The notes under the pieces: model-generated
What the model saw: only the letters and a program-made list of their open reading frames with translations
Databases searched by the model: none
Told to the model about the DNA's origin: nothing
Shown: positions 42,833-57,787 of the stretch, piece after piece
Numbering within the stretch: the stretch's first letter is position 1
Layout: each line of letters begins with the position of its first letter
NCBI GenBank assembly: GCA_964603585.1
Contig: CAZRVK010000009.1
Coordinates: 7,319-71,318, forward strand
Length of the DNA stretch: 64,000 nucleotides
DNA from: an uncultured Planctomycetales bacterium
GTDB lineage: Bacteria > Omnitrophota > Gorgyraeia > Gygaellales > Profunditerraquicolaceae
Reading direction: 5' to 3'
Translations under genes and position numbers: made by a program

Positions 42833-42920
42833 AAATATAGTCCCTTTGCTGTTGTTAGGGTCACCATCCTGGCCCTAGTCCCAAAACCACAACTTACCTT
42901 AAACCTTTAAACAAATTCAA

Positions 42921-43979
42921 CTAAGCCAGATCACTAAATAAACTATCTCCCCGCGAATAATCAAGCTCCCTGCCTATAGAGTTTACTTTCTTCTTCAAGC
43001 AGCCAAGACAGGTACGCGACTCTTCACTGATACATCTTTTGCCGGGATAAATCTCATAGAGGGCTTTGTATTTCAAAGGCGTAAAGTTCGGCATCAAAAC
43101 ATTGGCGCCGATCTTTAAACCATCAACGCGGTAATCCTCCTCCTGACTGCCTAATGCAGTAGTTGCCGGAAGATGCGGATATTTTGTCACAATGCGTGTT
43201 AACGCCAAGGTTTTTAAGGTAAGGCGCGTATCTCCCCTGGATTGCGAAGACAATTTAGTCCTCTGATGGGGGATAAACGGCCCGATACCGATCATATCAA
43301 AGTTATTCTGCTTAAAGAAAATGATGTCTCCGGCAATATGCTTCAGACTTTGGCCCTTTAAACCAATGATATTGCCTGAACCAACCTGATATCCCAATTC
43401 TCTCAACTGGCGTAAACATCTTAGCCGGTTTGGGAAACTCATCCCCGGATGAAGCGATTCATATAACTTCCGGTCCGAAGTCTCTATTTTTAATAAATAC
43501 CGGTCAGCTCCGGCCCGGCGCCATACTTTATATTCTCTAAGCGTTCTTTCCCCCAGGCAAAGCGTTATCGCAATACTAAACTTGGCCTTTATTTCTTGAA
43601 TAATCCCGGCAAACCAGAGATAATCCAGAGCATCATCCTCCCCTGACTGCAGAACTACAGTTTTTATGCCGGCTGCGGACAATCGCGCGATACTTCCCAG
43701 GATCTCTTTGCTGGTTAAACGGTACCTTTGTAAATTGCGGTTATTCCGATTAAGGCCGCAATATAAACAGGCATTCCGGCAAAAGCTTGAGAACTCGACG
43801 ATACCTCTTAACAAAACGCCCGGACCAGCAAATTCAGCTCTAACCTCATCGGCAAAACAAAAAAGCTTGCACAATGCAGCATCGTTCTTTAAGGAAAGCA
43901 GATACTCGAGATCTTTACTATCGGGGATATCTGCGTCATAGATCCTTTTTAAAATCAGGTCCGTTTTAGACAAACTCAT
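42921..43979 (-). CDS. hydE: [FeFe] hydrogenase maturase HydE (radical SAM)
   Basis: CRNACLYC radical-SAM motif, 352 aa, biotin-synthase-like. Confidence 0.8.
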   Translation of the reverse strand: MSLSKTDLILKRIYDADIPDSKDLEYLLSLKNDAALCKLFCFADEVRAEFAGPGVLLRGIVEFSSFCRNACLYCGLNRNNRNLQRYRLTSKEILGSIARLSAAGIKTVVLQSGEDDALDYLWFAGIIQEIKAKFSIAITLCLGERTLREYKVWRRAGADRYLLKIETSDRKLYESLHPGMSFPNRLRCLRQLRELGYQVGSGNIIGLKGQSLKHIAGDIIFFKQNNFDMIGIGPFIPHQRTKLSSQSRGDTRLTLKTLALTRIVTKYPHLPATTALGSQEEDYRVDGLKIGANVLMPNFTPLKYKALYEIYPGKRCISEESRTCLGCLKKKVNSIGRELDYSRGDSLFSDLA

Positions 43980-45357
43980 CCCTCATCCCATTATCAATAT
44001 CGGCAAAAAATCTTGGCAGTTGATCAATGATATCCTTGTCCAGCTGCTGTTTAAGCTGGTCAATTAACTGATACCCATCCCTTTTGACCTTTGGAGAAGC
44101 AAAATCATCAAGGTATTCTTTTAAGGTAATTATAGCGTTAAGGCTGCATTTGCCTTTAATCGTCCCGGGTTTCGCTAAGTTCATAAACGCCTCTCCGGTC
44201 CTTTCCTTGCGGTAACAGGCCGCGCAAAAACTAGGGATAAACCTTTTTTCGATCAAAGATCCCACAACATCATCCAGGGTACGCTGATCTCCTAAAGTAA
44301 ATTGGATATCGGTATCTTGATTATTGTCTGCAGAGGAATACCCCCCGGGCGAGGTCCTAGACTCCGCGCTTATCTGCGATACGCCTAAAGAGAATAAGGC
44401 ATCACGCATTTGCGCATTCTCACGAGTAGAAAGGATTAATCCGGTATAAGGCACTGCCAGCCGGATGACCGCAACTAATTTCTTAAAATCATCGTCGTTG
44501 ACCTTATAAGGCATATCCCGGGTGAATTCGACTCCTTCTGCCGGCTCAATGCGCGGGACCGAGATCGTATGCGGGCCAACATTAAAGGTATTCTCCAGAT
44601 GCTCTACATGCATCAGCATCGCCAGCGTATCGAACTTCCAATCGTACAAACCATATAATACACCGATGCCTACATCATCTATACCGGCATGAAATGCCCG
44701 GTTTACCGCATCCAGTCGGTTATCCGGGTCGCTTTTAGGGCCTTTAGGATGCAGCCGGCGGTAAGTTTGTTCATGATAAGTCTCCTGAAATATCTGATAG
44801 GTCCCAATCCCGGAAGATTTCAATTGTTTAAAATCTTCGGTACTAAGAGGCGCACAATTTATATTCACTCTTTTGATCTTATGTACTCCCACGCCTGCGG
44901 CATAAACCGCCCTTACCGCAGCAGTATAATAATCTACATTTCTCAAGCCTCCTGGTGCAGATTCTCCGGCAACAACCAGTATCCTTTTATGCCCGCGCCT
45001 AAGGAGCCACTCTACCTGCTTCTTTATCTCATCAGGGCTAAGCGCTTTTCTTTTGGTAACCGGGTTATCGAATTTAAAAGCACAGTAAAGGCAATTATTT
45101 GAACAAAAGTTACTGATATAAAGCGGAGCAAAAAGCACCACCCTGCGGCCATAAATTGTATCTTTGACATAAGAAGCCGCGGAAAAGATCTTATTTAATA
45201 AGCCCGGATCGCTGACATTTAGAAGTATGGCGGTTTCCTTTAGTGTTAACCGGCATAAGGATCTTGATTTATTTAAGATCTTTTCCACCTCCACGAAAGG
45301 GACCTGCCGGGTATCATCTAAAAGGCTAAAGATCTTTTTATCATCAATATATTTCAT
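43966..45357 (-). CDS. hydG: [FeFe] hydrogenase maturase HydG (radical SAM tyrosine lyase)
   Basis: CSNNCLYCAF and the C-terminal Cys motif CAACYRKE. 463 aa. Confidence 0.8.
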   Translation of the reverse strand: MKYIDDKKIFSLLDDTRQVPFVEVEKILNKSRSLCRLTLKETAILLNVSDPGLLNKIFSAASYVKDTIYGRRVVLFAPLYISNFCSNNCLYCAFKFDNPVTKRKALSPDEIKKQVEWLLRRGHKRILVVAGESAPGGLRNVDYYTAAVRAVYAAGVGVHKIKRVNINCAPLSTEDFKQLKSSGIGTYQIFQETYHEQTYRRLHPKGPKSDPDNRLDAVNRAFHAGIDDVGIGVLYGLYDWKFDTLAMLMHVEHLENTFNVGPHTISVPRIEPAEGVEFTRDMPYKVNDDDFKKLVAVIRLAVPYTGLILSTRENAQMRDALFSLGVSQISAESRTSPGGYSSADNNQDTDIQFTLGDQRTLDDVVGSLIEKRFIPSFCAACYRKERTGEAFMNLAKPGTIKGKCSLNAIITLKEYLDDFASPKVKRDGYQLIDQLKQQLDKDIIDQLPRFFADIDNGMRDEFV

Positions 45358-46754
45358 GCCCCCTCCGGATCGTTAGATTTGGACTGCTTATATCCCAAAG
45401 ACATCAGGTTCTCAACGGATAAAACCTGTTTTACTAAATCATCCCCCAGCTTTTTTCCTAAGAACTCCTGGATATTCTCATTCTTGGTTTGAGCAAATTC
45501 CTTTAATATTTTACTTGCCTGGTCATAACCGATATGCGGCAGAAAAGCGGTAATGATCACCGGGCTTTTCTTAAAATACTCCTGGCATTTTTCTTCGTCC
45601 GCGCTTATCGCATACACATGGGTTTTAAACATTGCGCAGGTATTAATCAAAAGATCGAGCGACTCTAAGATTCCTTGTGCCAAAAGCGGCATAAATTCAT
45701 TGATCTGTAAAGTGCTACGGGATGCGGCTTCAAAAACCATTCCGCAATTGGCATTAACTTTAAGCCCCGCCTGAATTACCGACTCCAGGACAACCGGATT
45801 GACTTTCCCGGGCATGATCGAAGATCCTGCCTGCAAGACAGGTAACTTTATTTCGCCCAAGGCATGCAAAATACGCAGGTCATTCGCAATTTTAATCAAG
45901 TTGCCGGCATGCGCATTAAGAATACCGCAAACCTCTACAAAAGCATCACTATTGGCGGTCTGATCCACAGTATTTTCTCCCCGCGACAACCCTATCCCGG
46001 TGAGTTCCCGTAATTTTTCAATTACCAGAAAAATATAACTGCGCGGACTGGCCAACCCGGTTCCGACCGCTGTCCCGCCCATATTGACTACCCTTAAACG
46101 CTCTTGGCACTTAAACACCCTCCAACGGTCGCGGGCAACCGCCTCGGAATAAGCACTGAATTCCGCGCCCATCGATAATGGAACCGCCTCCTGTAATTCT
46201 GTACGGCCGATTTTAACTATCCGGGCAAATTCATTTTCTTTCTTTTGAAAGGCATCCTGCAGGCCAGTGATCATTTCGCTTAATTCTCTTAACGCAAGCA
46301 TAACTGCGATCTTTAATGCTGTCGGATAAACATCGTTAGTCGACTGATGCAGGTTAACATCCTCTAAGGGATGGACTAAACGATCATCACCGATTTTTCC
46401 CCCTAATAATTCTATAGCACGATTAGCAATCACTTCATTGACATTCATATTCGTGGAAGTTCCTGCCCCGCCCTGAAGGGCGTCCAGCGGGAACTGGCCA
46501 TCTAATTTACCTGCGATAACCTCATCACAGGCAGAGATGATGGCGGAAGCTTTATCTTTTTCCAAAAAACCCAACTCTAAATTACTTAAAGCCGCGGCTT
46601 TTTTTACCTTAGCCATTGACTTAATTAAACGCGGGCTTACTTTAGATCCGCTTAAAGTAAAATTATCTTTGGCCCGCTGTGTATGTATCCCCCAATAAAT
46701 ATCCCGGGGGATCTTCTTTTCGCCTAAAAGGTCTTTTTCGATCCTGTATTCCAT
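45354..46754 (-). CDS. aspA: aspartate ammonia-lyase/fumarase class II family protein
   Basis: GSSIMPGKVNP signature, 466 aa. This family is commonly linked to hydEFG clusters. Confidence 0.75.
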   Translation of the reverse strand: MEYRIEKDLLGEKKIPRDIYWGIHTQRAKDNFTLSGSKVSPRLIKSMAKVKKAAALSNLELGFLEKDKASAIISACDEVIAGKLDGQFPLDALQGGAGTSTNMNVNEVIANRAIELLGGKIGDDRLVHPLEDVNLHQSTNDVYPTALKIAVMLALRELSEMITGLQDAFQKKENEFARIVKIGRTELQEAVPLSMGAEFSAYSEAVARDRWRVFKCQERLRVVNMGGTAVGTGLASPRSYIFLVIEKLRELTGIGLSRGENTVDQTANSDAFVEVCGILNAHAGNLIKIANDLRILHALGEIKLPVLQAGSSIMPGKVNPVVLESVIQAGLKVNANCGMVFEAASRSTLQINEFMPLLAQGILESLDLLINTCAMFKTHVYAISADEEKCQEYFKKSPVIITAFLPHIGYDQASKILKEFAQTKNENIQEFLGKKLGDDLVKQVLSVENLMSLGYKQSKSNDPEGA

Positions 46755-46756
46755 AT

Positions 46757-47008
46757 TTACTTTCCTTTGCTAAGGGCGGACTTTACTGACACCCCCTCTA
46801 ACAAGCCCAATTTGCCGGTAAATGAACCTACCTCATCTGTCGTCGCATCCACGATCAAAACAATGACACTACAGGATTTCTTGGCATAAGGCAGACCCAT
46901 TCTGGCCACGACTAACTCACCAAACTCGGAAATGATATTATTCACGCCCAATGCCGAGCGCTTCCTGTTTTCAATAATGATCCCCACAAAGCCCAGTCTT
47001 TTTTCCAT
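46757..47008 (-). CDS. small ACT-like 'iron-only hydrogenase system regulator' (TM1266-like)
   Basis: 83 aa, in the position conserved next to hydG and hydA in many anaerobes. Confidence 0.5.
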   Translation of the reverse strand: MEKRLGFVGIIIENRKRSALGVNNIISEFGELVVARMGLPYAKKSCSVIVLIVDATTDEVGSFTGKLGLLEGVSVKSALSKGK

Positions 47009-47148: not shown

Positions 47149-48900
47149 TTATTTTACGTAAATCGGCCTTGCCTTATAATGCACATGCAGGAGTTTTTCC
47201 GATCTCTCTCCCAAAGGTTTGCCCAGGAACTCATTATAAAGCCTTTTAATGTACGGGTTCTGATGGCTTGAACGAACTTCTTTTTGATCATCATCCTGAT
47301 ATAAAGCCTGTGCCCTTTTAATCCTTAGTTCATCGGTAACCATATAAGGCTGGCCTCCGCCACCTACACAACCGCCAGGACAAGCCATAACCTCAATAAA
47401 ATGATAGGGGATCTCCTGGTTATTCTTTTTTGCATCCCTTATCTTATCGATAAGATATTCAACATTGCTCAAACCATGGGCGATCGCGATCCGGATCTTC
47501 TTTCCCCCCACTTCAATCTCTGTTTCTTTAACTCCCTTTAAACCTCTTACACTCTCAAATTCGACCTTTTTTAATTCCTTGCCGGTAATGAAATAATGCG
47601 CGGTCCTTAAAGCCGCTTCCATTACCCCACCGGTAGCGCCAAAGATTACCCCAGCTCCGGCATATTCGCCCAGAATAGAATCAGATTCTTCATCGGGCAG
47701 ATTGTCGAAATCTATTCCCGCCTGCTTGATCATACGCACTAATTCCCGTGTCGACAAAACCACATCAATATCCTGAAAACCAGATGCCGACATTTCTTCG
47801 TTCCTGGTAATCTCATACTTTTTAGAAGTACACGGCATGATCGAAACCATATATATCTTGGCCGGATCGATTTTATTCTTTTCGGCATAATAAGTCTTGG
47901 AAAGCACCCCTAAGATCTCATGCGGTGATTTACAGGAAGAAAAATGTTCGATCATATCCCCATGGAACTTCTCCATAAAATCAACCCACGAAGGGCAACA
48001 TGTAGTAATTAACGGCAGCGGCCGTTTACCCGACAACAATCTTCCTTCAAATTCACTGGCCTCTTCCATGATCGTAACATCGGCGGCAAAAGATGTATCG
48101 AAAACTGCCTTAAACCCTAAGCGCCGCAGCAATGCATACAGCTTTTTAGTAAAATTCTTGCCTACGTAGCCAAATGCCTCTCCGATAGAGACCCTTACTG
48201 CTGGAGCGATCTGAACCACACAATATTTATCTGTATCCTGCAAGGCTTTCCAGGCTAACGCCGTATGGTCCTGTTCAACGAAAGCTCCTGTTGGGCAATG
48301 GGCCGAACACTGGCCGCAACGCACACAAGGAGAATCTGCCAACTGGATATCCCCGGCAGGAGAGATCCTGGTCTTAATACCTCTTTCCAAGAATGACAAC
48401 GCCCAAACATCCTGGCATTCCTGGCAGACATAAACACACCTGCCGCAAAGGATACATTTCTTAGGGTCAAGATCAACCGCCCGGGTAGAAGTATCGATCG
48501 GCAGATCTCTTAAGAACTGCGGGAATGATTCTTCTTTAATCCCGAACTCGGCAGTAAGTTTTTGCAATTCACACTCATTATTCCTGCCGCATTTAAGGCA
48601 GTCATTGGGATGATTGGATAAAATCAATTCAATAACCGTTCTTCTTATCTCGACGATCTCCGGGTCATGGGTAATGATATCCATCCCCTCATCCAAAGGC
48701 GTACAGCAGGCACGCAGCATCTTATGCGTACCCCTTAATTTAACGATACAAATACCGCAGGATGCCGAAGCAGGCAGATCCGGATGTTTGCACAACGTAG
48801 GGATCTTTATCTGCACCTGCTTAGCCGCTTCCAGAATAGTCGTTCCGGCTTCCACCCTCAAGAGAATACCGTTTATCTTTGCTTGGATTATTTTAGCCAT
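47149..48900 (-). CDS. hndD: [FeFe] hydrogenase catalytic subunit HndD-like
   Basis: N-terminal 2Fe-2S and 4Fe-4S domains. H-cluster motifs are intact: L1 TTCCPSW, L2 MPCTSKKYE, L3 EVMACPGGCVGGGGQP. Confidence 0.85.
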   Translation of the reverse strand: MAKIIQAKINGILLRVEAGTTILEAAKQVQIKIPTLCKHPDLPASASCGICIVKLRGTHKMLRACCTPLDEGMDIITHDPEIVEIRRTVIELILSNHPNDCLKCGRNNECELQKLTAEFGIKEESFPQFLRDLPIDTSTRAVDLDPKKCILCGRCVYVCQECQDVWALSFLERGIKTRISPAGDIQLADSPCVRCGQCSAHCPTGAFVEQDHTALAWKALQDTDKYCVVQIAPAVRVSIGEAFGYVGKNFTKKLYALLRRLGFKAVFDTSFAADVTIMEEASEFEGRLLSGKRPLPLITTCCPSWVDFMEKFHGDMIEHFSSCKSPHEILGVLSKTYYAEKNKIDPAKIYMVSIMPCTSKKYEITRNEEMSASGFQDIDVVLSTRELVRMIKQAGIDFDNLPDEESDSILGEYAGAGVIFGATGGVMEAALRTAHYFITGKELKKVEFESVRGLKGVKETEIEVGGKKIRIAIAHGLSNVEYLIDKIRDAKKNNQEIPYHFIEVMACPGGCVGGGGQPYMVTDELRIKRAQALYQDDDQKEVRSSHQNPYIKRLYNEFLGKPLGERSEKLLHVHYKARPIYVK

Positions 48901-48903
48901 TTT

Positions 48904-50643
48904 TTATTTTTTAAGCACTGCTTTAAATTTACAGACATCCCAACACCGGCCGCATTTTATACATTTATCCTGAATGATACTATACCCTGATTCTTTATCC
49001 CCGATAATTGCCTGGACCGGGCAATTATTAAAACAGATCCCGCAACGTTTGCATTTATCCTCAATTATTTCAAACACCACCAGGCTGCGGCATTTTCCTG
49101 CCGGGCACCGCTTATTCACGATATGCTCGGTATATTCCTGTTCAAAATACTTCAGGGTAGAAAGCACCGGGTTCGATGCCGTTTGGCCTAACCCGCATAA
49201 TGAAGCTTTCTGCATCGCCTGGGCAATCCGTCTTAATTGCCCCAGATCTTCCGGACGGCCTTTACCTTCCGATATTTTTTTAAGGTATCCGAGCATTTGA
49301 AAACCGCCGATACGGCAAGGCGCGCATTTCCCACAGGACTCTTCCACGCAAAATCCCAGATAAAATTTAGGGATATCCACCATACAATCGTCTTCGTCGA
49401 TCACGATCATTCCGCCTGAACCCATGATCGAACCTAATTTCTGTAAATTCTCATAATCGACCGGGGTATCCAGCAATTCATTGGGAATGACCCCTCCGGA
49501 AGGCCCGCCGGTTTGTACGGCCTTGATCGGCTTGCCGGATAATGTCCCGCCGCAGATATCCGATACGATCTGCCTTAAGGTAGCCCCCATGGCAATCTCA
49601 ACCAGACCGGAATTTTTGACCTTGCCGGTAACCGCAAAAACTTTGGTGCCTTTTGAAGTAGGCGTACCAACCTGCGTCAACCACTTACCGCCTTTATGGA
49701 CAATTGCCGGGATATTAGCTAAAGTCTCTACATTATTGATCACCGTCGGCTTTCCCCATAACCCTTTTACTGAAGGATACGGAGGGCGGGGATGCGGAGT
49801 CCCCCTTTTGCCTTCGATCGAAGAAATTAAGGCGGTTTCCTCGCCGCAAACAAACGCACCGGCACCTAATCGGATATCTATGTCGAGGCTAAAAGGAGTG
49901 CCAAGGATATTCTTGCCTAATAAACCATAATCATACGCCTGCTGGATAGCTTTATTGATCCTTTCAACCGCCAAAGGATACTCGGCGCGGATATAAAAAT
50001 ACCCCTGGGAAGCGCCGATAGCAAAAGCCGCGATGATCAAGCCCTCGATAACCGCATGCGGATCACCTTCTAAAATGCTCCTGTCCATATACGCACCCGG
50101 GTCACCTTCATCAGCATTACAAATGACAAATTTTTCTTTCGAATCAACTTCCCGGGCAAAATTCCATTTCATCCAGGTAGGATACCCGGCACCGCCTCTG
50201 CCGCGGATACCGCTGACCTTTATCTCTTCGATCAGTTTTTGCGGACCTAACTCAACAAGGGCTTTCTTTAAACCCAGATACCCGCCACAGGAAATATACT
50301 CTTCGATACTCTCCGGATTGATCTTACCGCAATTACGCAAAACGATCCGGTGTTGTTTGACCTTAGGAGTAAAAACCAAATCCTGAATGACCTTGTTTTC
50401 ATTCAGGGAATCGACTATTCTTTTAATATCGGAATCCGCGACATTGGCATAAACCAGTTTATCCGGAAGTATTTTGACCACCAGCCCCCGGTCATAAACA
50501 CCGATATCGGCTACTCTGACCACCTGGAACTGCGCATGCAGGTTAGCCTCTCTAAGATAATCAAGCAGGCGGGTATAGAACTCCCTGGTCTTATCTTCTC
50601 TTTTTGCATCCGTATCTTTTACTAAAATAACCTTGGCATACAT
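48904..50643 (-). CDS. hndC: NuoF-like NAD(P)H-binding flavoprotein subunit HndC
   Basis: FMN/NADH site GGAGYPTWMKW, CGKCAPCRIG and two C-terminal 4Fe-4S motifs. Confidence 0.85.
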   Translation of the reverse strand: MYAKVILVKDTDAKREDKTREFYTRLLDYLREANLHAQFQVVRVADIGVYDRGLVVKILPDKLVYANVADSDIKRIVDSLNENKVIQDLVFTPKVKQHRIVLRNCGKINPESIEEYISCGGYLGLKKALVELGPQKLIEEIKVSGIRGRGGAGYPTWMKWNFAREVDSKEKFVICNADEGDPGAYMDRSILEGDPHAVIEGLIIAAFAIGASQGYFYIRAEYPLAVERINKAIQQAYDYGLLGKNILGTPFSLDIDIRLGAGAFVCGEETALISSIEGKRGTPHPRPPYPSVKGLWGKPTVINNVETLANIPAIVHKGGKWLTQVGTPTSKGTKVFAVTGKVKNSGLVEIAMGATLRQIVSDICGGTLSGKPIKAVQTGGPSGGVIPNELLDTPVDYENLQKLGSIMGSGGMIVIDEDDCMVDIPKFYLGFCVEESCGKCAPCRIGGFQMLGYLKKISEGKGRPEDLGQLRRIAQAMQKASLCGLGQTASNPVLSTLKYFEQEYTEHIVNKRCPAGKCRSLVVFEIIEDKCKRCGICFNNCPVQAIIGDKESGYSIIQDKCIKCGRCWDVCKFKAVLKK

Positions 50644-50662
50644 AAGTTACTTATCTCCGTTA

Positions 50663-51010
50663 TCAATCCAAAAGCTCAAAGATACAATCGTTAACCAGCA
50701 TCTTAGAAATTACATGCTTTTCCAGTATTTTAGTCGCAACATCTTTATTTACCGCGCCATAAGTTACTGCCGGCATACCGTCAACTCTTACCTCTACTAA
50801 CGGCTCGGCATAACAGGCCCCGGCGCAACCACATTTCTTGATCTCAATCTGCAGGTTCCTCTTTTTAACCTCATCAACGAAGAAGTTAAAAACTTCCTCT
50901 GCTCCGGCAGCGATACCGCAGCTGCTCATACCGACCTTAATCCAATCCTTGGGCTTATCAGAAAGCCCCTGGCTCATTTTTTCCAAATCATCCGGGGTCA
51001 ATTTATTCAT
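50663..51010 (-). CDS. hndB: thioredoxin-like [2Fe-2S] protein HndB
   Basis: 115 aa with GMSSCGIAAGAEE...CGCAGACYAEPLV. Confidence 0.7.
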   Translation of the reverse strand: MNKLTPDDLEKMSQGLSDKPKDWIKVGMSSCGIAAGAEEVFNFFVDEVKKRNLQIEIKKCGCAGACYAEPLVEVRVDGMPAVTYGAVNKDVATKILEKHVISKMLVNDCIFELLD

Positions 51011-51016
51011 CGCCAG

Positions 51017-51490
51017 TTATTCCTCTTTTATATATTTCGATAAGATATCCGCGATCTCATTTTTCTTTACCTTGCCATACACCTTGTCATCGATCATGAC
51101 AACCGGCGCTAACCCGCAGCATCCTAAACAGCGGACAACATCCAAGTAAAAAAGCCCATCCTTGGTTGTCTGGCCTTCCTTAATGCCCAGTATATTCTTT
51201 ATTTCATCAAGGATAACTTCAGCGCCCCGCAAATAACAGGCAGTTCCCATACATAAAGCAATCCGATGTTTACCGGGGGGGGTTAATTTAAAAAAATTAT
51301 AAAAAGTAATTACTTCATAAATCCTGGCTAAAGGGACATCAAGCATTTTGGAAAGCTGCAGTGAGGCCTCGCGCGGGACATAACCGTAGTGGTTCTCCAA
51401 TTCATGTAAAATCATGATCAGATTACCCGGCTTATCCTTCCACTTCTTTACCAAACCCGTAATCTCTTTTAATACCTCTTCCTTAACCAT
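51017..51490 (-). CDS. hndA: NuoE-like [2Fe-2S] subunit HndA
   Basis: 157 aa with the CxxxxC...CxxxC NuoE fold (CMGTACYLRG...CLGCCGLAPV). Confidence 0.8.
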   Translation of the reverse strand: MVKEEVLKEITGLVKKWKDKPGNLIMILHELENHYGYVPREASLQLSKMLDVPLARIYEVITFYNFFKLTPPGKHRIALCMGTACYLRGAEVILDEIKNILGIKEGQTTKDGLFYLDVVRCLGCCGLAPVVMIDDKVYGKVKKNEIADILSKYIKEE

Positions 51491-51648: not shown

Positions 51649-51676
51649 AATATACCATAGTTATCTCCATTGTCAA
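51649..51676 (-). promoter_or_regulatory. sigma70-type promoter for hndABCD (TTGACA, 16 nt spacer, TATATT)
   Basis: On the minus strand TTCTTGACAATGGAGATAACTATGGTATATTCGG, leaving a leader of about 150 nt. Confidence 0.5.
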
Positions 51677-51711: not shown

Positions 51712-53538
51712 TTAAGATTTTTTCGCCCCGGATGAAGAATAGTGGGTATGAAGAAGTTCATGGCTCAAATGGCCGCACGGCCCATCGGTAAAGAATTCTT
51801 TATATATCGCCTTGACAGAAGGGTTATCATGAGATTTCCTGTAAACAAGACCTTCATCTTCTTTATATACGGAATCTTTACGCCGCTCTTTGGCCGCTGC
51901 CGCATCATCTGCGATCGGTTGGCCTCCGCCGCCCAGGCATCCTCCCGGGCAGGTCATAATCTCTATAAAATGATAATCGTCCAATTCCCCCTTAGCAAGC
52001 AATTCCATGATCTGGCGTGCGCTGCCGATAGTATGGCCTACCATCAACTTGAGTGTCACTCCCTCAAGGAATTTCCATTGCCCGACGGCTTTCTGTATCG
52101 GGATCTCAACCCTGCGTAAATAGGAAAACCCGCGGACCGGGACAATGTTCAACTTATCAAACGGCACTTCACTGCCGGTTATGACCTCATAAACAGTGCG
52201 CAAAGCGGCTTCCATGACGCCGCCGGTCGCTCCAAAAATAGTCCCCGCTCCGGTCGACACACCCAGAGGATCATCAAAACTATCTTCCTTAAGAAGTCCG
52301 AAATTAACCCCTGACTCTTTTATCATCCTGGCGACTTCGCGGGTGGTCAAAACATAATCGACATCAGGAAAAGCCTCGTTGTCTTTGAGTTTCATCTTCT
52401 CCTGCCAGTATTTAAAAGCATTTATCATCTCCGGCCTTTTGGCTTCATATTTCTTGGCGGTACAAGGCATGATGGAAACTACAATGAGGTCGCGCGGATC
52501 AATATTCATCTTCTCGGCATAATAGGTTTTAGTCACCGCGCCAAACATCTGCTGCGGGGATTTACAGGTAGAAATATGCGGGACGGCCTTTGGATAAAAC
52601 AATTCGGCAAACCTGATCCATCCAGGAGAGCATGACGTGATCATCGGAAGTCTGCCTTTTGATCTTAGCCTGGCCAGGAGTTCATGGCCTTCCTCGATAA
52701 TCGTAAGATCCGCAGTGAATTGAGTGTCAAACACCTTTAAAAAACCGAGTTTACGTAACGCCCCCACCATCTTGCCGGTGACCAGGCTTCCGGGCTCCAT
52801 ACCGAATTCTTCACCGAGAGCTACCCGGACTGCAGGGGCCGTTTGGACCACAACCTTTTTTTTGGGGTCGCCTATCGCCTTCCAAACATCCTCAATCGAA
52901 TCCTTCTCTACAATTGCTCCGGTCGGGCAAACAAGAAGGCACTGGCCGCAATTAATACATGTGGAACTGGCCAAACCTTTATCGAAGAAAGTGGAAACCC
53001 GTGTGCGTTTACCTCTGCCGGTCAGATTAATTGCGTTGACCGACTGAACATTCGCACATACCCCAATACACCGTTCGCATAATATGCACTTATTGGGGTC
53101 TCTTGACAAAGACAAGCTTGTCAGGTCCTTATTCACCTGGAATGACTCTTGTTTGGCAAACCGGATATCTTTGACCCCCATATCAAAAGCAAGACGGCGC
53201 AGATGGCAATTCTGGTTACGCTCACAAGTCAAACAATCAGCCGGATGGGACGCTAAAAGCAGTTCAATACTAAGCCTCCTGGCCTGGCGAACCCTTTCGG
53301 AATTAGTATATATTTCCATATGCTCGCTTACTTTACTGACACATGAACGTAACAGAGTTTTAGCCCCTTTAACCTCGACTAAACACACAGAACAGGCACC
53401 TTCTTCATTGACACCTTCCAAATAACAAAGAGTCGGGATTTCAATACCGATATCCTTACAGGCCTTTAATATAGTAACCCCTTCCGGACAATCGTAATAT
53501 TCCCCGTTGATTTTTACGCTGACAAGCTTCTGTTCCAT
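51712..53538 (-). CDS. hydA: [FeFe] hydrogenase-like catalytic subunit with variant L1 motif
   Basis: N-terminal Fe-S domains. L2 (MPCTAKKYE) and L3 (EIMTCPGGCLGGGGQP) are intact, but L1 reads TSCSPGW where TSCCPxW is expected. Confidence 0.75.
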   Translation of the reverse strand: MEQKLVSVKINGEYYDCPEGVTILKACKDIGIEIPTLCYLEGVNEEGACSVCLVEVKGAKTLLRSCVSKVSEHMEIYTNSERVRQARRLSIELLLASHPADCLTCERNQNCHLRRLAFDMGVKDIRFAKQESFQVNKDLTSLSLSRDPNKCILCERCIGVCANVQSVNAINLTGRGKRTRVSTFFDKGLASSTCINCGQCLLVCPTGAIVEKDSIEDVWKAIGDPKKKVVVQTAPAVRVALGEEFGMEPGSLVTGKMVGALRKLGFLKVFDTQFTADLTIIEEGHELLARLRSKGRLPMITSCSPGWIRFAELFYPKAVPHISTCKSPQQMFGAVTKTYYAEKMNIDPRDLIVVSIMPCTAKKYEAKRPEMINAFKYWQEKMKLKDNEAFPDVDYVLTTREVARMIKESGVNFGLLKEDSFDDPLGVSTGAGTIFGATGGVMEAALRTVYEVITGSEVPFDKLNIVPVRGFSYLRRVEIPIQKAVGQWKFLEGVTLKLMVGHTIGSARQIMELLAKGELDDYHFIEIMTCPGGCLGGGGQPIADDAAAAKERRKDSVYKEDEGLVYRKSHDNPSVKAIYKEFFTDGPCGHLSHELLHTHYSSSGAKKS

Positions 53539-53562: not shown

Positions 53563-56500
53563 TTATTTTATGTCACACCGCAGGCAACGCCTGATCTCGG
53601 TATACACCTGTTTCTGGGTCAAACCAAGATTGATTTCCTTAAAATTATTGACCCGGCGATTGATTTTTAATTTATCCATTGCCTGATGCGGCTCTTTTTC
53701 AACCGTAAGCGGCAGGCTCATACTATACTTAAAAACAGGCACCAACTTCTCAAAACGCCTCTTGTCTGACATTAATGCCATATCGATCTTTTCGGAAAAC
53801 CTTCTTCCCCAACTCATCGCCTCTACAGCGGTAGCCGGACCGGTAACAAGATCGCCCCCGGCAAAAATCTTGGGATTCCGAGTTTTAAGCGTATTGCGGT
53901 CAACAACCAACGCGCCATATTTATCCAACTCGACACCAAAATCCCGCAAAAAATCCGCATCTACTTTCTCCCCAATAGCCGTCATAACGGTATCGCAAGG
54001 GATCTCATATGTTTCAGAGGTAGATATCGGTTTACGCCGTCCGGTAAGATCATACTCACCCGGGACCATTTTCATGACATCCAACGCCACAACATGGCCT
54101 TTTTCATCTCCAATAATAGCCTTGGGATTGGCAAAGAATACAAAATTGACCCCTTCCTTGAACGCCTCGGCTATCTCTTCCTTATTTGCCGGCATATCTT
54201 CCTGCGAACGCCGATAAACAATGGTCGCCTTTGAACCTAACCTCCATACACTGCGCGCCGCATCAATGGCGACATTGCCCGCGCCTATTATAACCACGTG
54301 ATTGCCGATCTTCGGTTTCTTTCCAAATGCCAATTCTTCCAGGAAATGCACTCCGGACCAAACCCCTTTTAAGGTTTCACCAGGGATATTCAAGGGCATC
54401 TCTTTATATGCCCCGGTAGCCAGAAAAACAGCATCGGATGTTTTTTCTATTGCCCGCAGTTTTTTAGAATCAATTTTAGAGTTAAAAATAAACTTGGCGC
54501 CGCACCGTTTGATAAACTCTATCTCTTTTGCGAGTACCCCCCGGGGAAGGCGGTATTGCGGGATACCATAGCGTAATATCCCTCCTGCCTCGGGATTCTT
54601 TTCATAAACACTAACACAATGGCCCAGCCGGGACAAATAATACGCGGCCATCAATCCTGCTGGTCCGGCACCAATAATAGCAATCTTTTTCCCCGTAGGA
54701 GGAAAACGCTCTTTAAGTATCTTCTTATAAACAGCTTCCTGGGCCTTATTTTTGTATACTGTATCGGCGATGTACCGATGCACCTCTCCCTGGGCAACAG
54801 GAGAATCGATATCCTCCCTCCTGCACCTTAACTTGCAATGAAAATGACATATCCTGCCCGTACTGGCCGGGAGAGGGTTATCACGCAGAGATAATTCAAA
54901 AGCATCCTTGAGCCTTTTGGCCTTAGTCAGTGCCATAAACCCGGAAATGTTCATATGTAATGGACAACTATTCTCACAGGGAGAAACAAATAAACTCTGG
55001 CAAACGCCGGATTCACAACGTTTATCCTTGGCGTGTGATTCGTATTCATCCAGGAAATATTTAATTGTGGTTAACACCGGATTCGGACCGGTCTGGCCCA
55101 GCCCGCAAAGAGCACTATCTTTGATAAATGACCCCAGGGATTTAAGCTCATCTAAATACCCTGAAGAGGCCTTGCCTTCTGTAATTGCATTCAGGTTTTC
55201 TAAAATATGATGTAAGCCTTCCCGGCAGGGAGTACACTTACCGCATGACTCGGAATTTGTAAATTCCACAAAATAGCGCGCTACATCCACCATACAGTTA
55301 TCATCGTCCATGACAACCATCCCGCCGCTTCCCATGATCGCGCCAAGTGAATTTAAAGACTCATAATCGACCGGCGTATTGAAAAGCTCAACCGGGATAC
55401 AGCCTCCTGAAGGGCCACCCGTCTGAACCGCCTTGACCGCGCGATGCGTACCTGTTCCCTCGCCGATATTATAAATGATCGTTTGGATAGGCGAGCCAAG
55501 CGGCATTTCGACAAGTCCAGTATTCTTGATCTTACCAACCAGAGAGAACACTTTCGTCCCCGGGCTTGTTTTTGTACCTGTCTGCAGAAAGAAATCCGCT
55601 CCTTTATGAATAATCACCGGGATATTACACCAGGTCTCCACATTATTGATTGTCGTCGGCTTATCCCATATCCCTTTCTGTGCCGGAAACGGCGGCCTCG
55701 GACGCGGACGTCCCGATTTACCCTCGATAGAACGTATTAACGCGGTTTCTTCCCCGCAGACAAAAGCACCGGCACCTTCAACCATATGCAGATCAAAGTT
55801 AAAATCAGTGCCAAATATTTTCTCCCCTAAGAAACCGCTCTCGGTGGCTTGTTTAATCGCAAGTTTCAGCCTTTCGACAGCCAAAGGATACTCTGCGCGT
55901 ATATAAATAACCCCTTTGGAAGCTCCAGTCGCATAAGCACCTATCAACATCCCTTCAAGAAGCATATGCGGGTCTGATTCGATCTCATTACGGTTCATAT
56001 ATGCCCCGGGATCTCCTTCATCGGCATTACAAACAATATACTTCTCTTTTGCCTCAACTTTAGCCATCAACCCCCATTTAACACCGGTAGGAAAACCCGC
56101 TCCCCCACGGCCGCGCAACTTTGACCGGCTGACTTCATCAATCACCTGCGAAGGAGTAACACCATGCATAACCTTATACAAAGATGAATACCCTCCTACC
56201 CCTATATACTCCTCAATATCCTCCGGGTTAATAAGGCCGCAATCCCTTAAAACGATCTTCTTCTGCCATTTGAAAAACGGTATGTCACTCCAATTAGGCA
56301 GATCATCGAACCCATGCCCGTAAAACACCCTGCCCGTCAGATGATCCCACTCCTCTATCTTGCACAAGGCTTTATCCAAGAATATCTCCCCGTCAAGGAT
56401 ACGTTCGATTATCTTTGCCACATCCTTAGGCTGGACCTTTTGCAGAATAACAAGGGGCTTATGCGGCAGAATGATATTAACCAGCGGTTCGCGCGCGCAG

Positions 56501-56724
56501 AAACCAAAACATCCGGTTTTTACCAAATGCGCCTTCGATTTCTTTTTCCGTAAAATCGAATCAAAAGAATTATAGAGTTCATCGGCACCGTTACCAATCC
56601 CGCAGGTATCCATGCCGATCGCGATCCTGGGTTCAGCCGGCATTATTTTCCGTAAGCCTTTTTCCTTTACTTGATTAAGCTGATCAAGATTTCTTATTAG
56701 CACCGCTGGCCCCTTTTCTATCAA
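53563..56724 (-). CDS. fusion: HndB-like Trx domain + NuoF-like flavoprotein + GltD/NfnB-like NADPH:FAD oxidoreductase (1053 aa)
   Basis: N-terminal GMDTCGIGNGADE..CFGFCAREPLV, then NuoF motifs (GGAGFPTGVKW, CGKCTPCREG). The C-terminal 400 aa has GltD-type Cys motifs, GAGPAGL (FAD) and IIGAGNVAIDAA (NADPH). A start at GTG 56703 or ATG 56643 is possible. Confidence 0.8.
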   Translation of the reverse strand: MIEKGPAVLIRNLDQLNQVKEKGLRKIMPAEPRIAIGMDTCGIGNGADELYNSFDSILRKKKSKAHLVKTGCFGFCAREPLVNIILPHKPLVILQKVQPKDVAKIIERILDGEIFLDKALCKIEEWDHLTGRVFYGHGFDDLPNWSDIPFFKWQKKIVLRDCGLINPEDIEEYIGVGGYSSLYKVMHGVTPSQVIDEVSRSKLRGRGGAGFPTGVKWGLMAKVEAKEKYIVCNADEGDPGAYMNRNEIESDPHMLLEGMLIGAYATGASKGVIYIRAEYPLAVERLKLAIKQATESGFLGEKIFGTDFNFDLHMVEGAGAFVCGEETALIRSIEGKSGRPRPRPPFPAQKGIWDKPTTINNVETWCNIPVIIHKGADFFLQTGTKTSPGTKVFSLVGKIKNTGLVEMPLGSPIQTIIYNIGEGTGTHRAVKAVQTGGPSGGCIPVELFNTPVDYESLNSLGAIMGSGGMVVMDDDNCMVDVARYFVEFTNSESCGKCTPCREGLHHILENLNAITEGKASSGYLDELKSLGSFIKDSALCGLGQTGPNPVLTTIKYFLDEYESHAKDKRCESGVCQSLFVSPCENSCPLHMNISGFMALTKAKRLKDAFELSLRDNPLPASTGRICHFHCKLRCRREDIDSPVAQGEVHRYIADTVYKNKAQEAVYKKILKERFPPTGKKIAIIGAGPAGLMAAYYLSRLGHCVSVYEKNPEAGGILRYGIPQYRLPRGVLAKEIEFIKRCGAKFIFNSKIDSKKLRAIEKTSDAVFLATGAYKEMPLNIPGETLKGVWSGVHFLEELAFGKKPKIGNHVVIIGAGNVAIDAARSVWRLGSKATIVYRRSQEDMPANKEEIAEAFKEGVNFVFFANPKAIIGDEKGHVVALDVMKMVPGEYDLTGRRKPISTSETYEIPCDTVMTAIGEKVDADFLRDFGVELDKYGALVVDRNTLKTRNPKIFAGGDLVTGPATAVEAMSWGRRFSEKIDMALMSDKRRFEKLVPVFKYSMSLPLTVEKEPHQAMDKLKINRRVNNFKEINLGLTQKQVYTEIRRCLRCDIK

Positions 56725-57223
56725 CCTGTTTTATCAACCGTTTTATTTTCGCTTCAGTCATGTGGCTGTATATCTTACCGTCTATATCGATTACGGGGGC
56801 AAGTGCACATTGTCCGAAACAAGCAACGGTTCTAATGGTAAATTTATTATCGGCAGTAGTCAAAAAGATCTTTTCATTCTCTTTGAGATTTTCTTCTTTA
56901 AACCCTAAAGTAAGCGCCAATGAACGCAGGAGATCCTTTGAACCCCTGGTATGGCATGCCGTTCCGCGGCAGACAATTATGGAATGCTCTCCTTGCGGTT
57001 TCAGGTTAAAGAAAGAATAGAATGTTGCCACGCTATATACCTGAACAAGCGGCAAACCCAGATTCTCGGCAATATAGGCCAAGACTTCCTCGGGCAAATA
57101 ATTGTGCTGATTAAGCTTTTGCGCCTCCTCCATGACACTAAGCAGCTCACCCGGCTTTCCCTTATATGCCAGGATCATTTTATCGAGCGCCTTGAAATCA
57201 GAGCCTTTGGTTTTTGCCTTCAC
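56684..57223 (-). CDS. NuoE-like [2Fe-2S] subunit (second copy)
   Basis: 179 aa with the NuoE fold CRGTACHTRG...CFGQCALAPV. GTG start with an AAGGGGGG Shine-Dalgarno. Confidence 0.8.
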   Translation of the reverse strand: MKAKTKGSDFKALDKMILAYKGKPGELLSVMEEAQKLNQHNYLPEEVLAYIAENLGLPLVQVYSVATFYSFFNLKPQGEHSIIVCRGTACHTRGSKDLLRSLALTLGFKEENLKENEKIFLTTADNKFTIRTVACFGQCALAPVIDIDGKIYSHMTEAKIKRLIKQVDRKGASGANKKS

Positions 57224-57270: not shown

Positions 57271-57298
57271 CAATATAAGTAGTATAGCAAAACATAAC
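57271..57298 (-). promoter_or_regulatory. sigma70-type promoter for the second hydrogenase operon (TTGATA, 16 nt spacer, TATACT)
   Basis: On the minus strand TTGATAAGGAGTTATGTTTTGCTATACT. Confidence 0.5.
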
Positions 57299-57361
57299 TC
57301 CTTATCAAGCAAATTAACGCTTCAGGAGATACAAATCAAATCCCAATAGGATAAGAGAGCT

Positions 57362-57787
57362 TTACTTCTTCTCTAAATATTTGATCAACACCGACCAGGT
57401 CTTTGACCCCACGACACCGTCAGCGTTGATCCCATTTGCCTGCTGAAACTTGCGGATCGCATCTTTTGTATTAGGCCCGATCTGTCCGTCGATTGCCCCA
57501 TCATAAAAATTAGCGTTCTTTAACGCAGTTTGTATCTCTGCGCCATTGGGCATACGGATATTTTCTTCCTGCAAGGAGCGCACTGTCGACTCTAACTGCT
57601 CCAGTTTGGCCCTTAAGGCCGCGTTCTCATTGCGGAGGTTATTTAATTCAGCCGAACGCTCAAGAATAACCTTGTCTTTACCTCTGGTTTGTGATTCCAA
57701 ATTGCTGTATTCCGTTGCAGTTACACACCCGGACAAAAATAATAATGACATGGCCATTAAAACACGAAGCATTTTATCCCTCCTCAA
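57362..57787 (-). CDS. coiled-coil lipoprotein with PG_binding_1 domain
   Basis: LSGC lipobox, heptad coiled coil and PG-binding repeat. A paralog of the C-terminus of the gene at 33386-33880. Confidence 0.6.
   Translation of the reverse strand: MRRDKMLRVLMAMSLLFLSGCVTATEYSNLESQTRGKDKVILERSAELNNLRNENAALRAKLEQLESTVRSLQEENIRMPNGAEIQTALKNANFYDGAIDGQIGPNTKDAIRKFQQANGINADGVVGSKTWSVLIKYLEKK

Follow-up and report, generated by a model that had tools for sequence, protein, structure and literature searches.

Does the exchange of a cluster-ligating Cys in an H-cluster motif mean that a hydrogenase has lost or changed its function? A gene in the 64,000-nucleotide stretch that we analyzed (the window; contig CAZRVK010000009.1 of assembly GCA_964603585.1, from an uncultured Planctomycetales bacterium placed in the Omnitrophota) raises this question. 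The gene, at 51712-53538 on the minus strand, encodes a 608-aa HydA in which a first-pass annotation had noticed a Ser instead of the second Cys of motif L1. From this it had considered altered H-cluster ligation, a sensory or non-canonical hydrogenase, or a non-hydrogenase role of the Stn type in conjunction with a GltD-fused partner.

HydA has Ser at one of the four cluster ligand positions

Searches of Pfam, NCBIfam and the PDB showed that HydA is made up of an M3-type F-domain, an H-domain and a small-subunit-like C-terminus. The Pfam models Fe_hyd_lg_C, Fe_hyd_SSU, Fer2_4 and NADH-G_4Fe-4S_3 matched; the first of them (PF02906; 3.8e-89) was covered over its whole profile (1-245), and PF02256 matched at 1.7e-20. 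Two NCBIfam models scored above their cutoffs, TIGR02512 (495.5 bits; cutoff, 405.95) and NF040763, "NADH-dependent [FeFe] hydrogenase, group A6" (812.7 bits; cutoff, 765). The best PDB match was A. woodii HydA1 (7q4v_A; E = 6.5e-187, 52% identity).

L1 of HydA reads LPMITSCSPGWIRF (ITSCSPGW). The segment TSCSPGW occupies aa 301-307 (52618-52638, minus strand), where Cys303 is the proton-relay Cys and Ser304 (codon TCT, 52627-52629, minus strand) takes the place of a Cys ligand of [4Fe-4S]H. L2 is MPCTAKKYE (aa 357-365; 52444-52470, minus strand), with Cys359 and Lys362 corresponding to Cys355 and Lys358 of CpI. L3 is EIMTCPGGCLGGGGQP (aa 526-541; 51916-51963, minus strand), with Met528, Cys530 and the bridging Cys534 corresponding to CpI Met497, Cys499 and Cys503. 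As the first-pass annotation had stated, both are canonical, fitting MPCxxKxxE and ExMxCxxGCxxGGGQP, respectively. When HydA was aligned with CpI, A. woodii HydA1 and T. kivui HydA1 using MAFFT, Ser304 fell into the CpI Cys300 column and Cys303 into the Cys299 column without a shift, and the published numbering of Ser301 in A. woodii and Cys299 in T. kivui (PMC10021017) was recovered. A shifted alignment to these three proteins that would restore both Cys residues was looked for and not seen, and the Ser-for-Cys exchange noticed in L1 stands.

HydA thus has Cys at three of the four [4Fe-4S]H ligand positions (C359, C530 and C534) and Ser304 at the fourth. The proton relay and pathway are kept, with C303, E283, E286, R290 and S323 at the positions of CpI C299, E279, E282, R286 and S319, and so are the pocket residues K362, M357, M528, P235, P328, Q329 and F435 (CpI K358, M353, M497, P231, P324, Q325 and F417). 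All accessory F-cluster ligands are conserved in the alignment with CpI. T. kivui HydA1 (PDB 8A6T/8BEW) and C. pasteurianum CpI share the fold and the catalytic residues with the window HydA (51% and 38% identity, respectively) but possess the canonical TSCCP and four Cys ligands; CpI differs further in being monomeric and ferredoxin-dependent.

The closest known counterpart is A. woodii HydABC(D) (PDB 7Q4V/7Q4W/8A5E), whose HydA1 is of the same domain layout and length class and contains an identical ITSCSPGW. It also shares L2, L3, the proton pathway and every accessory cluster ligand, and has NuoE- and NuoF-like genes alongside; the window HydA differs in two short loop insertions, one after L2 and one before L3. 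The cryo-EM map behind the Ser-ligand assignment in A. woodii HydA1 is reportedly at a resolution of roughly 3 Å. In the resulting model, Ser301 is a ligand of the [4Fe-4S] subcluster, and yet the infrared signature of the H-cluster is apparently unaffected and the complex is active and bidirectional (Katsyv et al. 2023, PMC10021017). Between the Ser-bearing complex of A. woodii and the Cys-bearing one of T. kivui, infrared signatures and activities are similar (PMC10021017). The suggestion of altered H-cluster ligation therefore holds in the literal sense, in that Ser occupies the C300 position, but not as a functional mark: given the normal infrared signature and the active complex of A. woodii, the Ser denotes neither a sensory nor a non-canonical enzyme. 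Since the active A. woodii enzyme presents the same exception, four strictly conserved Cys residues are not a requirement for membership of [FeFe]-hydrogenase group A.

The exchange has also been engineered. The C115S variant of C. reinhardtii HydA1, in which the same second Cys of TSCCP is exchanged, retained neither the [4Fe-4S] cluster nor any activity (Kertess et al. 2017, PMC5855289). Since the natural Ser enzyme of A. woodii is active, the scaffold matters: Ser is tolerated only in a suitable one, and the proven scaffold is only 52% identical to the window HydA. A different arrangement, in which Ser304 is not a ligand, the adjacent Cys303 moves to bind the [4Fe-4S] cluster and protons take another route, seems very improbable to us. 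A neighboring Cys was suggested as a stand-in ligand in the C115A variant of C. reinhardtii HydA1 (Kertess et al., PMC5855289), and a Cys at the position of CpI A321 is more frequent among TSCSP sequences (86%) than otherwise (38%). This extra Cys, however, is unspecific, as the TTCCP paralog in the window has it too. Moreover, Ser301 is the assigned ligand in the A. woodii model, the high activity of that enzyme needs the relay Cys (PMC10021017), and Cys303 and the pathway equivalent to CpI E279/E282/R286/S319 are all invariant.

Ser prevails across a large clade of HydA proteins

Homologs in related genomes share the motif, a point that the first-pass annotation had singled out for checking. 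TSCSPGW is found in all 120 of the nearest database homologs, which are 58-100% identical to the window HydA, and in 85 of the 90 HydA ORFs from 80 related genome loci. The nearest named relatives are a Planctomycetales-labelled genome (L001), whose HydA is 85% identical to that of the window, and an Omnitrophota sequence (P0128). All six Ser codons are used at the C300 position (AGC, 46; AGT, 12; TCG, 13; TCT, 8; TCC, 6; TCA, 5). An error of sequencing or assembly, by which a Cys codon TGT was misread as TCT, would take a single base, but its probability is negligible: the same Ser recurs in the closest homologs and in independent assemblies, encoded mostly by AGC or AGT, which are not one step from TCT, and the A. 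woodii protein, which has been studied by experiment, has it as well. A pseudogene reading of HydA was considered and dropped.

A neighbor-joining tree, the sampling of which is biased toward the query, places the window HydA together with A. woodii HydA1 inside a TSCSP clade that is nearly monophyletic; nested within it are four TSCCP sequences, one of them as sister to TSCSP sequences of Acetivibrio. Ser occurs naturally at the second Cys site of TSCCP in about 20% of the hydrogenase sequences analyzed by Kertess et al. (2017, PMC5855289). A full-text literature search for the motif gave one relevant paper, on Melainabacteria. The TSCSP motif is already known and ordinary.

What, then, might the Ser be for? 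In NAD(P)H-linked hydrogenases of the multimeric type, it could be an adaptive tuning device that shifts the reduction potential of [4Fe-4S]H, and with it the catalytic bias, or that alters robustness; Ser would then be more than a silent substitute for Cys. This idea would refine our explanation and is compatible with it, although we regard it as rather doubtful. The strong conservation of Ser over a deep, multi-phylum clade with six codons in use speaks for tuning, as does the altered catalytic bias of C. reinhardtii HydA1 variants with changed [4Fe-4S] ligands (PMC5855289). On the other hand, the A. woodii and T. kivui enzymes resemble each other in infrared signature and activity (PMC10021017), and the four TSCCP sequences inside the TSCSP clade suggest that Ser and Cys can interchange. 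Among the H-domain columns, neither a compensating residue nor a substitute Cys co-varies with C300S, a comparison of low power with only eight Cys-type sequences. Whether or not it tunes the cluster, Ser at C300 is very probably an ancient trait, kept by selection, in a very large, multi-phylum HydA clade, and neither a defect nor a mark of a lost or sensory function.

HydA belongs to a redox operon next to a second hydrogenase and the maturases

HydA is the last gene of a trio on the minus strand. The first encodes a 179-aa HydC/NuoE-like subunit with a thioredoxin-like [2Fe-2S] domain (56684-57223; Pfam 2Fe-2S_thioredx, 3.2e-42; also matched by NCBIfam NuoE/HoxE models) and the second a 1053-aa HydB-like fusion protein (53563-56724), to which HydA is translationally linked across a gap of 24 bp. 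Upstream of the trio lies a promoter-like site, TTGATA-16-TATACT with TG (57281-57308, minus strand), which is a consensus match only.

Beyond HydA, on the same strand, a second operon of the HndABCD type (47149-51490) encodes a NuoE-like protein (51017-51490), a 115-aa [2Fe-2S]-ferredoxin-like protein (50663-51010), a NuoF-like protein with a C-terminal 2x[4Fe-4S] domain identified by Pfam (48904-50643), and a paralogous HydA (47149-48900). The L1 motif of this paralog is indeed TTCCPSW (aa 299-305), as the first-pass annotation had read it. The 221-bp gap between the stop codon of the trio HydA and this operon contains a promoter-like site (TTGACA-16-TATATT with TG, an 11/12 consensus match only; 51649-51676, minus strand), which suggests that the second operon may be transcribed separately.

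An H-cluster maturation cluster follows downstream on the minus strand (41585-47008), with genes for a TM1266-like protein (46757-47008), an aspartate ammonia-lyase-like protein (45354-46754), HydG (43966-45357), HydE (42921-43979) and HydF (41585-42832). The NCBIfam models TIGR03959, NF008909, TIGR03955, TIGR03956 and TIGR03918 each scored above cutoff. The H-cluster maturases are encoded in the genome, the HydG, HydE and HydF models (TIGR03955, TIGR03956 and TIGR03918) accounting for 41585-45357. A double-REC response regulator gene is located at 40381-41514.

Two HydA paralogs in tandem and the response regulator gene nearby might suggest that the trio HydA is a HydS-like sensor that regulates the adjoining Hnd-type operon. 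Chongdar et al. are said to have described, in 2018, HydS-type sensors (group C) as having a C-terminal PAS/signaling domain and lacking the proton-relay Cys, M353 and M497. Pfam identified no PAS or signaling domain in the window HydA, which retains C303, M357 and M528 at the corresponding positions as well as the proton pathway. It is also coupled translationally to NuoE/NuoF-type redox subunits, in an operon beside HydG, HydE and HydF, and two other loci (L082 and L083) contain the trio by itself, without another hydrogenase in its vicinity. We consider a sensory function highly improbable, and the proposal of a sensory or non-canonical hydrogenase falls.

The partner of HydA is a NuoF::GltD fusion

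The HydB-like protein matched the Pfam models Complex1_51K, NADH_4Fe-4S, Fer4_20 and Pyr_redox_2; its length would be 1046 aa if translation started at the GTG of codon 8, as in a database copy (P0121). It consists of an N-terminal thioredoxin-like [2Fe-2S] domain, a NuoF-type FMN/NADH core with an N3-type [4Fe-4S] cluster, a His/Cys hinge of H564, C570 and C575, and a GltD/NfnL-type module with 2x[4Fe-4S], FAD and an NADPH site ("YRR"), which takes the place of the usual C-terminal ferredoxin domain. In PDB searches, aa 33-579 matched NfnB (9n5u_B) and HydB (7q4v_B; residues 40-542 of the 599 in the chain), and aa 580-1051 matched NfnA, StnC and NfnI-L. Whereas HydB of A. woodii, with 599 aa, has the classical form and ends in a 2x[4Fe-4S] ferredoxin domain, its proposed ferredoxin site, the fusion lacks that domain and continues from aa ~580 with a GltD/NfnL-type FAD/NADPH module of ~470 aa. 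The other NuoF-like protein of the window (48904-50643) does possess the ferredoxin domain. Across 119 homologs, the residues for FMN/NADH, FAD, NADPH and Fe-S binding are invariant.

Among the 80 genome loci, the order NuoE - NuoF::GltD - HydA(TSCSP) occurs 17 times in full length and about 4 times in part; in one Omnitrophota contig (L081), both operons and the maturase cluster recur together. Members of the fusion family are numerous in Omnitrophota, Bacteroidales and syntroph-related lineages, where their annotation is only generic. The GltD-fused partner, which the first-pass annotation had invoked together with the motif, is indeed unusual but has no tie to TSCSP: a BLAST-based table of partner classes in the 80 loci showed that TSCSP HydAs pair with the NuoF::GltD fusion, a HydB of the classical kind (~600 aa; found in A. 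woodii), a short NuoF of ~390 aa or a GltD-only protein. The last of these, ~650 aa long, creates A2-like contexts in two loci (L023 and L026). The rules of HydDB (PMC5037454) place a hydrogenase in A3 when its neighbor has a NuoF domain, and here the neighbors are NuoE-like and NuoF-like, with FMN/NADH motifs and an N3-type [4Fe-4S] cluster; the A2 rule, which calls for a GltD/GltA neighbor with no NuoF, does not apply, the neighbor having both NuoF and GltD.

The building blocks of the trio recall StnABC of Sporomusa ovata (PDB 8OH5) and NfnABC/Nfn-Bfu (PDB 9N5U and 9BOV), which likewise combine NuoE-like and NuoF-like subunits, the latter of the FMN/NAD(H) type, with a GltD/NfnL-type FAD/NADP(H) module that is circularly permuted. 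Residues 580-1051 of the fusion correspond to StnC 102-566 and NfnA 104-503, and its C-terminal RCLRC aligns with the N-terminal RCLQC of NfnI-L. A partner bearing NuoF-type and GltD-type nucleotide sites, as StnABC/NfnABC do in combination, might mean that HydA is an electron-transfer subunit devoid of an H-cluster in an NADH/NADPH/ferredoxin transhydrogenase. In Stn and NfnABC, however, which are transhydrogenases and not hydrogenases, the GltD module resides in a NuoG-like subunit, and StnC, a GltD/NuoG-like fusion, and NfnA have no H-domain (PMC7483475; PDB chain matches). In the window, by contrast, it is the NuoF-like subunit that carries the module, and the place of the third subunit is taken by a complete HydA, whose H-cluster pocket and proton-pathway residues are all under conservation; the maturases adjoin the trio region both here and in L081. 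The Stn-like role is accordingly very improbable and is abandoned.

A HydB-type subunit with a glutamate-synthase-like domain has been described in archaeal [FeFe]/[NiFe] hybrid complexes, which are described by AlphaFold modeling alone and predicted to be bifurcating, and this domain was proposed as the ferredoxin site (Greening et al. 2024, PMC11216029). The resemblance to the window fusion is drawn from the description of this glutamate-synthase-type domain. Papers on the Bfu family (PMC9304861) and Hydrogenedentota (PMC11406978) and a review of multimeric hydrogenases (PMC6288185) contain no mention of a NuoF-GltD fusion, and our literature search found no biochemical characterization of the trio.

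Discussion

Taken as a whole, and with high confidence, we explain HydA as an [FeFe]-hydrogenase subunit that is competent in catalysis and of the same type as A. woodii HydA1, on the basis of its motif, operon structure, residue conservation and homology, together with the activity published for a Ser-bearing homolog. The [4Fe-4S] part of its H-cluster would be held by Cys359, Cys530 and the bridging Cys534, with Ser304 as the fourth ligand. If active and assembled with its neighbors, as we infer, HydA would form the arm that converts H2 in a complex of three subunits of the NuoE/NuoF type (Bfu/HydABC-like; 56684-57223, 53563-56724 and 51712-53538), in which electrons would pass between the H-cluster, the accessory clusters of HydA and the site for FMN/NAD(H) on the NuoF-like subunit. 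Because the ferredoxin-type C-terminal domain of the NuoF-like subunit has been swapped for a GltD/NfnL-type 2x[4Fe-4S]-FAD-NADP(H) module, it is most likely that the complex connects H2 with NAD(H) as well as with NADP(H). The absence of the HydB ferredoxin domain, the proposed ferredoxin site, counts against this explanation insofar as it bears on whether the complex bifurcates.

We further propose, tentatively and at somewhat less than even probability, that NuoE - NuoF::GltD - HydA(TSCSP) represents a distinct class of Bfu-type hydrogenases, in which a permuted NfnL/GltD FAD-NADP(H) module replaces the ferredoxin-reducing arm of HydB and H2 is coupled directly to NAD(H) and NADP(H). If so, the trio might act, in habitats where H2 is low, as a dual-nucleotide redox valve that evolves H2 or, alternatively, unite hydrogenase and transhydrogenase in one built-in hybrid, perhaps with a second site for flavin-based bifurcation.

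For annotators, our results are a caution that a missing second Cys of TSCCP is no evidence for an inactive or sensory hydrogenase. Filters that demand a strict four-Cys motif would wrongly drop the Ser-type HydAs, although Ser is the rule among the NAD(P)H-linked enzymes of a large clade that spans several phyla. That Ser works in natural scaffolds, yet abolishes cluster binding in C. reinhardtii HydA1, is a puzzle already visible in the literature. The NuoF::GltD partner is a more useful lead than the motif: it may define how Omnitrophota, Bacteroidales and syntroph-related lineages link H2 to their NADPH pool.

Results

HydA carries serine at a cluster-ligand position

HydA, a 608-aa protein encoded at 51712-53538 (minus strand), has the full [FeFe]-hydrogenase domain layout in Pfam: a [2Fe-2S] domain at the N-terminus, followed by a NuoG-type region of His/Cys [4Fe-4S] type and a 2x[4Fe-4S] ferredoxin domain, then an H-domain (Fe_hyd_lg_C, 3.8e-89, full profile) and a small-subunit-like C-terminus. 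It scored 812.7 bits against NF040763 ('NADH-dependent [FeFe] hydrogenase, group A6'; cutoff 765), a cutoff also exceeded by the second HydA of the window. The H-cluster motif L1 reads TSCSPGW (aa 301-307; 52618-52638, minus), with Ser304 encoded by TCT (52627-52629, minus). Alignment with C. pasteurianum hydrogenase (CpI), A. woodii HydA1 and T. kivui HydA1 assigned Ser304 to the column of CpI Cys300 and Cys303 to that of Cys299, without a nearby gap or shift, and recovered the published numbers Ser301 (A. woodii) and Cys299 (T. kivui). The first-pass annotation was thus correct in placing Ser at the second L1 Cys position, and likewise in describing L2 (MPCTAKKYE) and L3 (EIMTCPGGCLGGGGQP) as canonical and the HydA at 47149-48900 as TTCCPSW.

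We also observed a cysteine, Cys325 (HISTCKSPQQ, about 52564-52566, minus), at the CpI-Ala321 position, beside the proton-pathway Ser319. Cys occupies this position in 86% of TSCSP HydAs versus 38% of the few TSCCP sequences, and in both the TTCCP paralog and A. woodii HydA1.

The serine motif is the majority state of its clade

TSCSPGW was present in all of the 120 best database homologs (58-100% identity) and in 85 of 90 HydA ORFs from 80 loci fetched from named genomes, whose lineages include Bacillota, Bacteroidales, Omnitrophota, Planctomycetes-labelled MAGs, Thermodesulfobacteriota, Armatimonadota and Acidobacteria. TSCSP is therefore shared by related genomes, as the check proposed earlier had asked, and is not rare but the majority state in this HydA clade. 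The Ser codons at the site were AGC (46), AGT (12), TCG (13), TCT (8), TCC (6) and TCA (5); that both Ser codon families are used shows that Ser has long been under selection. The homologs, the ORFs and the codon families together rule out sequencing error as the source of Ser.

In a neighbour-joining tree with query-biased sampling, 87 TSCSP sequences, A. woodii HydA1 among them, were nearly monophyletic. Four TSCCP sequences were nested within this clade, one of them sister to Acetivibrio sequences with TSCSP. Given the biased sampling, we read the tree only as suggesting that exchanges between Ser and Cys have occurred. A search over the H-domain columns found none that co-varied with C300S.

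One TSCSP homolog, the database protein P0083 (870 aa, 59% identity), is ~280 aa longer and has a precomputed HATPase_c (PF02518) match; its 12046-bp contig apparently also bears P0179, a homolog of the fusion described below. P0083 could represent a fusion of HydA with an ATPase domain of the histidine-kinase type, or two genes joined in gene calling.

Catalytic residues are retained

An alignment-based audit found every residue considered to be conserved: the proton-relay Cys; the equivalents of the proton-pathway residues E279/E282/R286/S319; the three remaining cluster Cys; the equivalents of Lys358, Met353, Met497, Pro231, Pro324, Gln325 and Phe417; and all accessory-cluster ligands. Pfam detected no PAS or other signalling domain in HydA. 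The absence of such a domain and the retention of the proton-relay Cys and the Met353/Met497 equivalents led us to reject a HydS-like identity, and with it the proposed sensory role. The suggested Stn-like, non-hydrogenase role fails as well, since StnC, in which GltD and NuoG parts are fused, has no H-domain (PMC7483475), unlike the window HydA with its full H-domain. The altered ligation proposed earlier stands insofar as Ser occupies the ligand position, as does A. woodii Ser301. By analogy with A. woodii HydA1, a characterised enzyme of 52% identity, we infer that HydA is an active hydrogenase with a Ser-ligated [4Fe-4S]H subcluster.

The NuoF-like partner carries a GltD module

HydA is the last gene of a trio, 24 bp after a 1053-aa NuoF-like fusion (53563-56724, minus) that follows a NuoE-like subunit (56684-57223, minus). 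The fusion start is ambiguous between TTG at 56724, which gives the longest ORF (1053 aa) and overlaps the NuoE gene by 41 nt, and GTG at codon 8 (56703), where the database copy P0121 starts (1046 aa). Residues 33-579 match HydB and NfnB chains. The match to A. woodii HydB stops at residue 542 of 599, so the fusion lacks the 2x[4Fe-4S] ferredoxin domain that forms the HydB C-terminus in classical HydABC. From about residue 580, directly after an invariant H564/C570/C575 hinge common to classical HydB, a GltD module matches NfnA (104-503), StnC (102-566) and NfnI-L. The fusion C-terminus (…RRCLRCDIK) aligns with the NfnI-L N-terminus (…RCLQCPV), which indicates a circular permutation of the module like that of StnC and NfnA; together with C583/C587, the RCLRC segment presumably makes up a full [4Fe-4S] site.

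Comparison of 119 full-length homologs showed no variation in the FMN/NADH loops, the hinge, the Cys residues of the N3-type cluster, the FAD fold, an NADPH-type GxGxxA…YRR site or either of the GltD-type [4Fe-4S] sites (C583/C587/C1047/C1050 and C626/C630/C634). This ~1045-1055-aa architecture is abundant, under source names of only 'FAD-dependent oxidoreductase' or 'NuoF'. With equal length of the longest contig as a proxy for co-location, 27 HydA clusters among the matches listed pair with a listed fusion cluster; direct inspection of loci confirmed the trio order, and the trio stands alone in loci L082 and L083.

Other TSCSP HydAs in the 80 loci were paired with a classical ~600-aa HydB, a ~390-aa short NuoF or ~650-aa GltD-only proteins, so the motif and the fusion are independent traits. 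The short NuoF-like protein (~385-405 aa), without N- or C-terminal extension, precedes many TSCSP HydAs in Bacteroidales, Omnitrophota and others (loci L004, L007, L018, L027, L031, L034, L038, L041, L048, L052, L054, L061, L062, L068, L070 and L072). The ~650-aa GltD-type partner in L023 and L026 lacks a NuoF domain (HydDB A2-like).

Genomic setting

Directly downstream of the trio lies an HndABCD-type operon (47149-51490, minus) encoding a NuoE-like protein, a [2Fe-2S]-ferredoxin-like protein of 115 aa, a NuoF of 579 aa that carries a 2x[4Fe-4S] domain at its C-terminus, and the HydA whose TTCCPSW is a minor variant of L1. Genes for HydG, HydE and HydF follow on the same strand, together with those for a TM1266-like and an aspartate ammonia-lyase-like protein; the latter gene (45354-46754, minus; NF008909, 560 bits, cutoff 510) is flanked by the TM1266-like gene and HydG. 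A 2024 study connects the ammonia-lyases found in hyd operons with synthesis of the dithiomethylamine bridge, to which they would supply nitrogen (PMC11736057). A double-REC response regulator (40381-41514) lies downstream of HydF.

The Omnitrophota locus L081 shows the whole window arrangement of trio, Hnd-type operon with TTCCPSW (L081 10917-15262), TM1266 and HydG/E/F; the HydA pair, its order and the downstream maturases are conserved at about 61% identity. Unlike the window, L081 has no ammonia-lyase gene at the corresponding place, and a Rex-like redox-sensing regulator gene (L081 4659-5297) precedes its trio instead of the LysM/peptidoglycan-binding-type gene (57362-57787) of the window. 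Of the sigma-70-like sites with an extended -10 TG, the two best matches were intergenic, upstream of the trio (57281-57308, minus) and of the Hnd-type operon (51649-51676, minus), in a window whose total of such sites did not exceed the shuffled expectation.

Discussion

On sequence grounds, the window HydA belongs to the A. woodii-type Ser-ligated HydA clade. Because its neighbour contains a NuoF domain, the HydDB rule (PMC5037454) places it in group A3, not A2. Its best PDB match is A. woodii HydA1 (7q4v_A, E=6.5e-187), with an identical ITSCSPGW, in which Ser301 stands in for one of the Cys ligands of the A1 [4Fe-4S] cluster (T. kivui Cys299; Katsyv et al. 2023, PMC10021017). The same paper saw no apparent change in the infrared signature of the H-cluster and describes the complex as active and bidirectional. 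About 20% of the hydrogenase sequences analysed by Kertess et al. (2017, PMC5855289) have Ser here, and TSCSPGW was noted in Melainabacteria trimeric hydrogenases (Di Rienzi et al. 2013, PMC3787301). The variant is thus real but ordinary, already documented structurally and spectroscopically.

We propose that H2 would be split at an H-cluster whose cubane is held by three Cys and one Ser, as shown or published for a homolog, and that electrons would run via the accessory clusters of HydA to the FMN/NAD(H) site of the NuoF-like subunit. The GltD module follows the hinge immediately, in the usual place of the mobile ferredoxin domain, and may open a second route to or from NADP(H) via two [4Fe-4S] clusters and FAD. 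Within the searchable library we found no biochemical study of a fusion-type complex; a HydB with a glutamate-synthase-type domain has been described only in models of archaeal hybrid complexes (PMC11216029). The remaining interest of this system lies in the uncharacterised NuoF::GltD partner and in a published puzzle: natural scaffolds tolerate Ser, while C. reinhardtii HydA1 does not, its engineered C115S variant losing the cluster (Kertess et al. 2017, PMC5855289).
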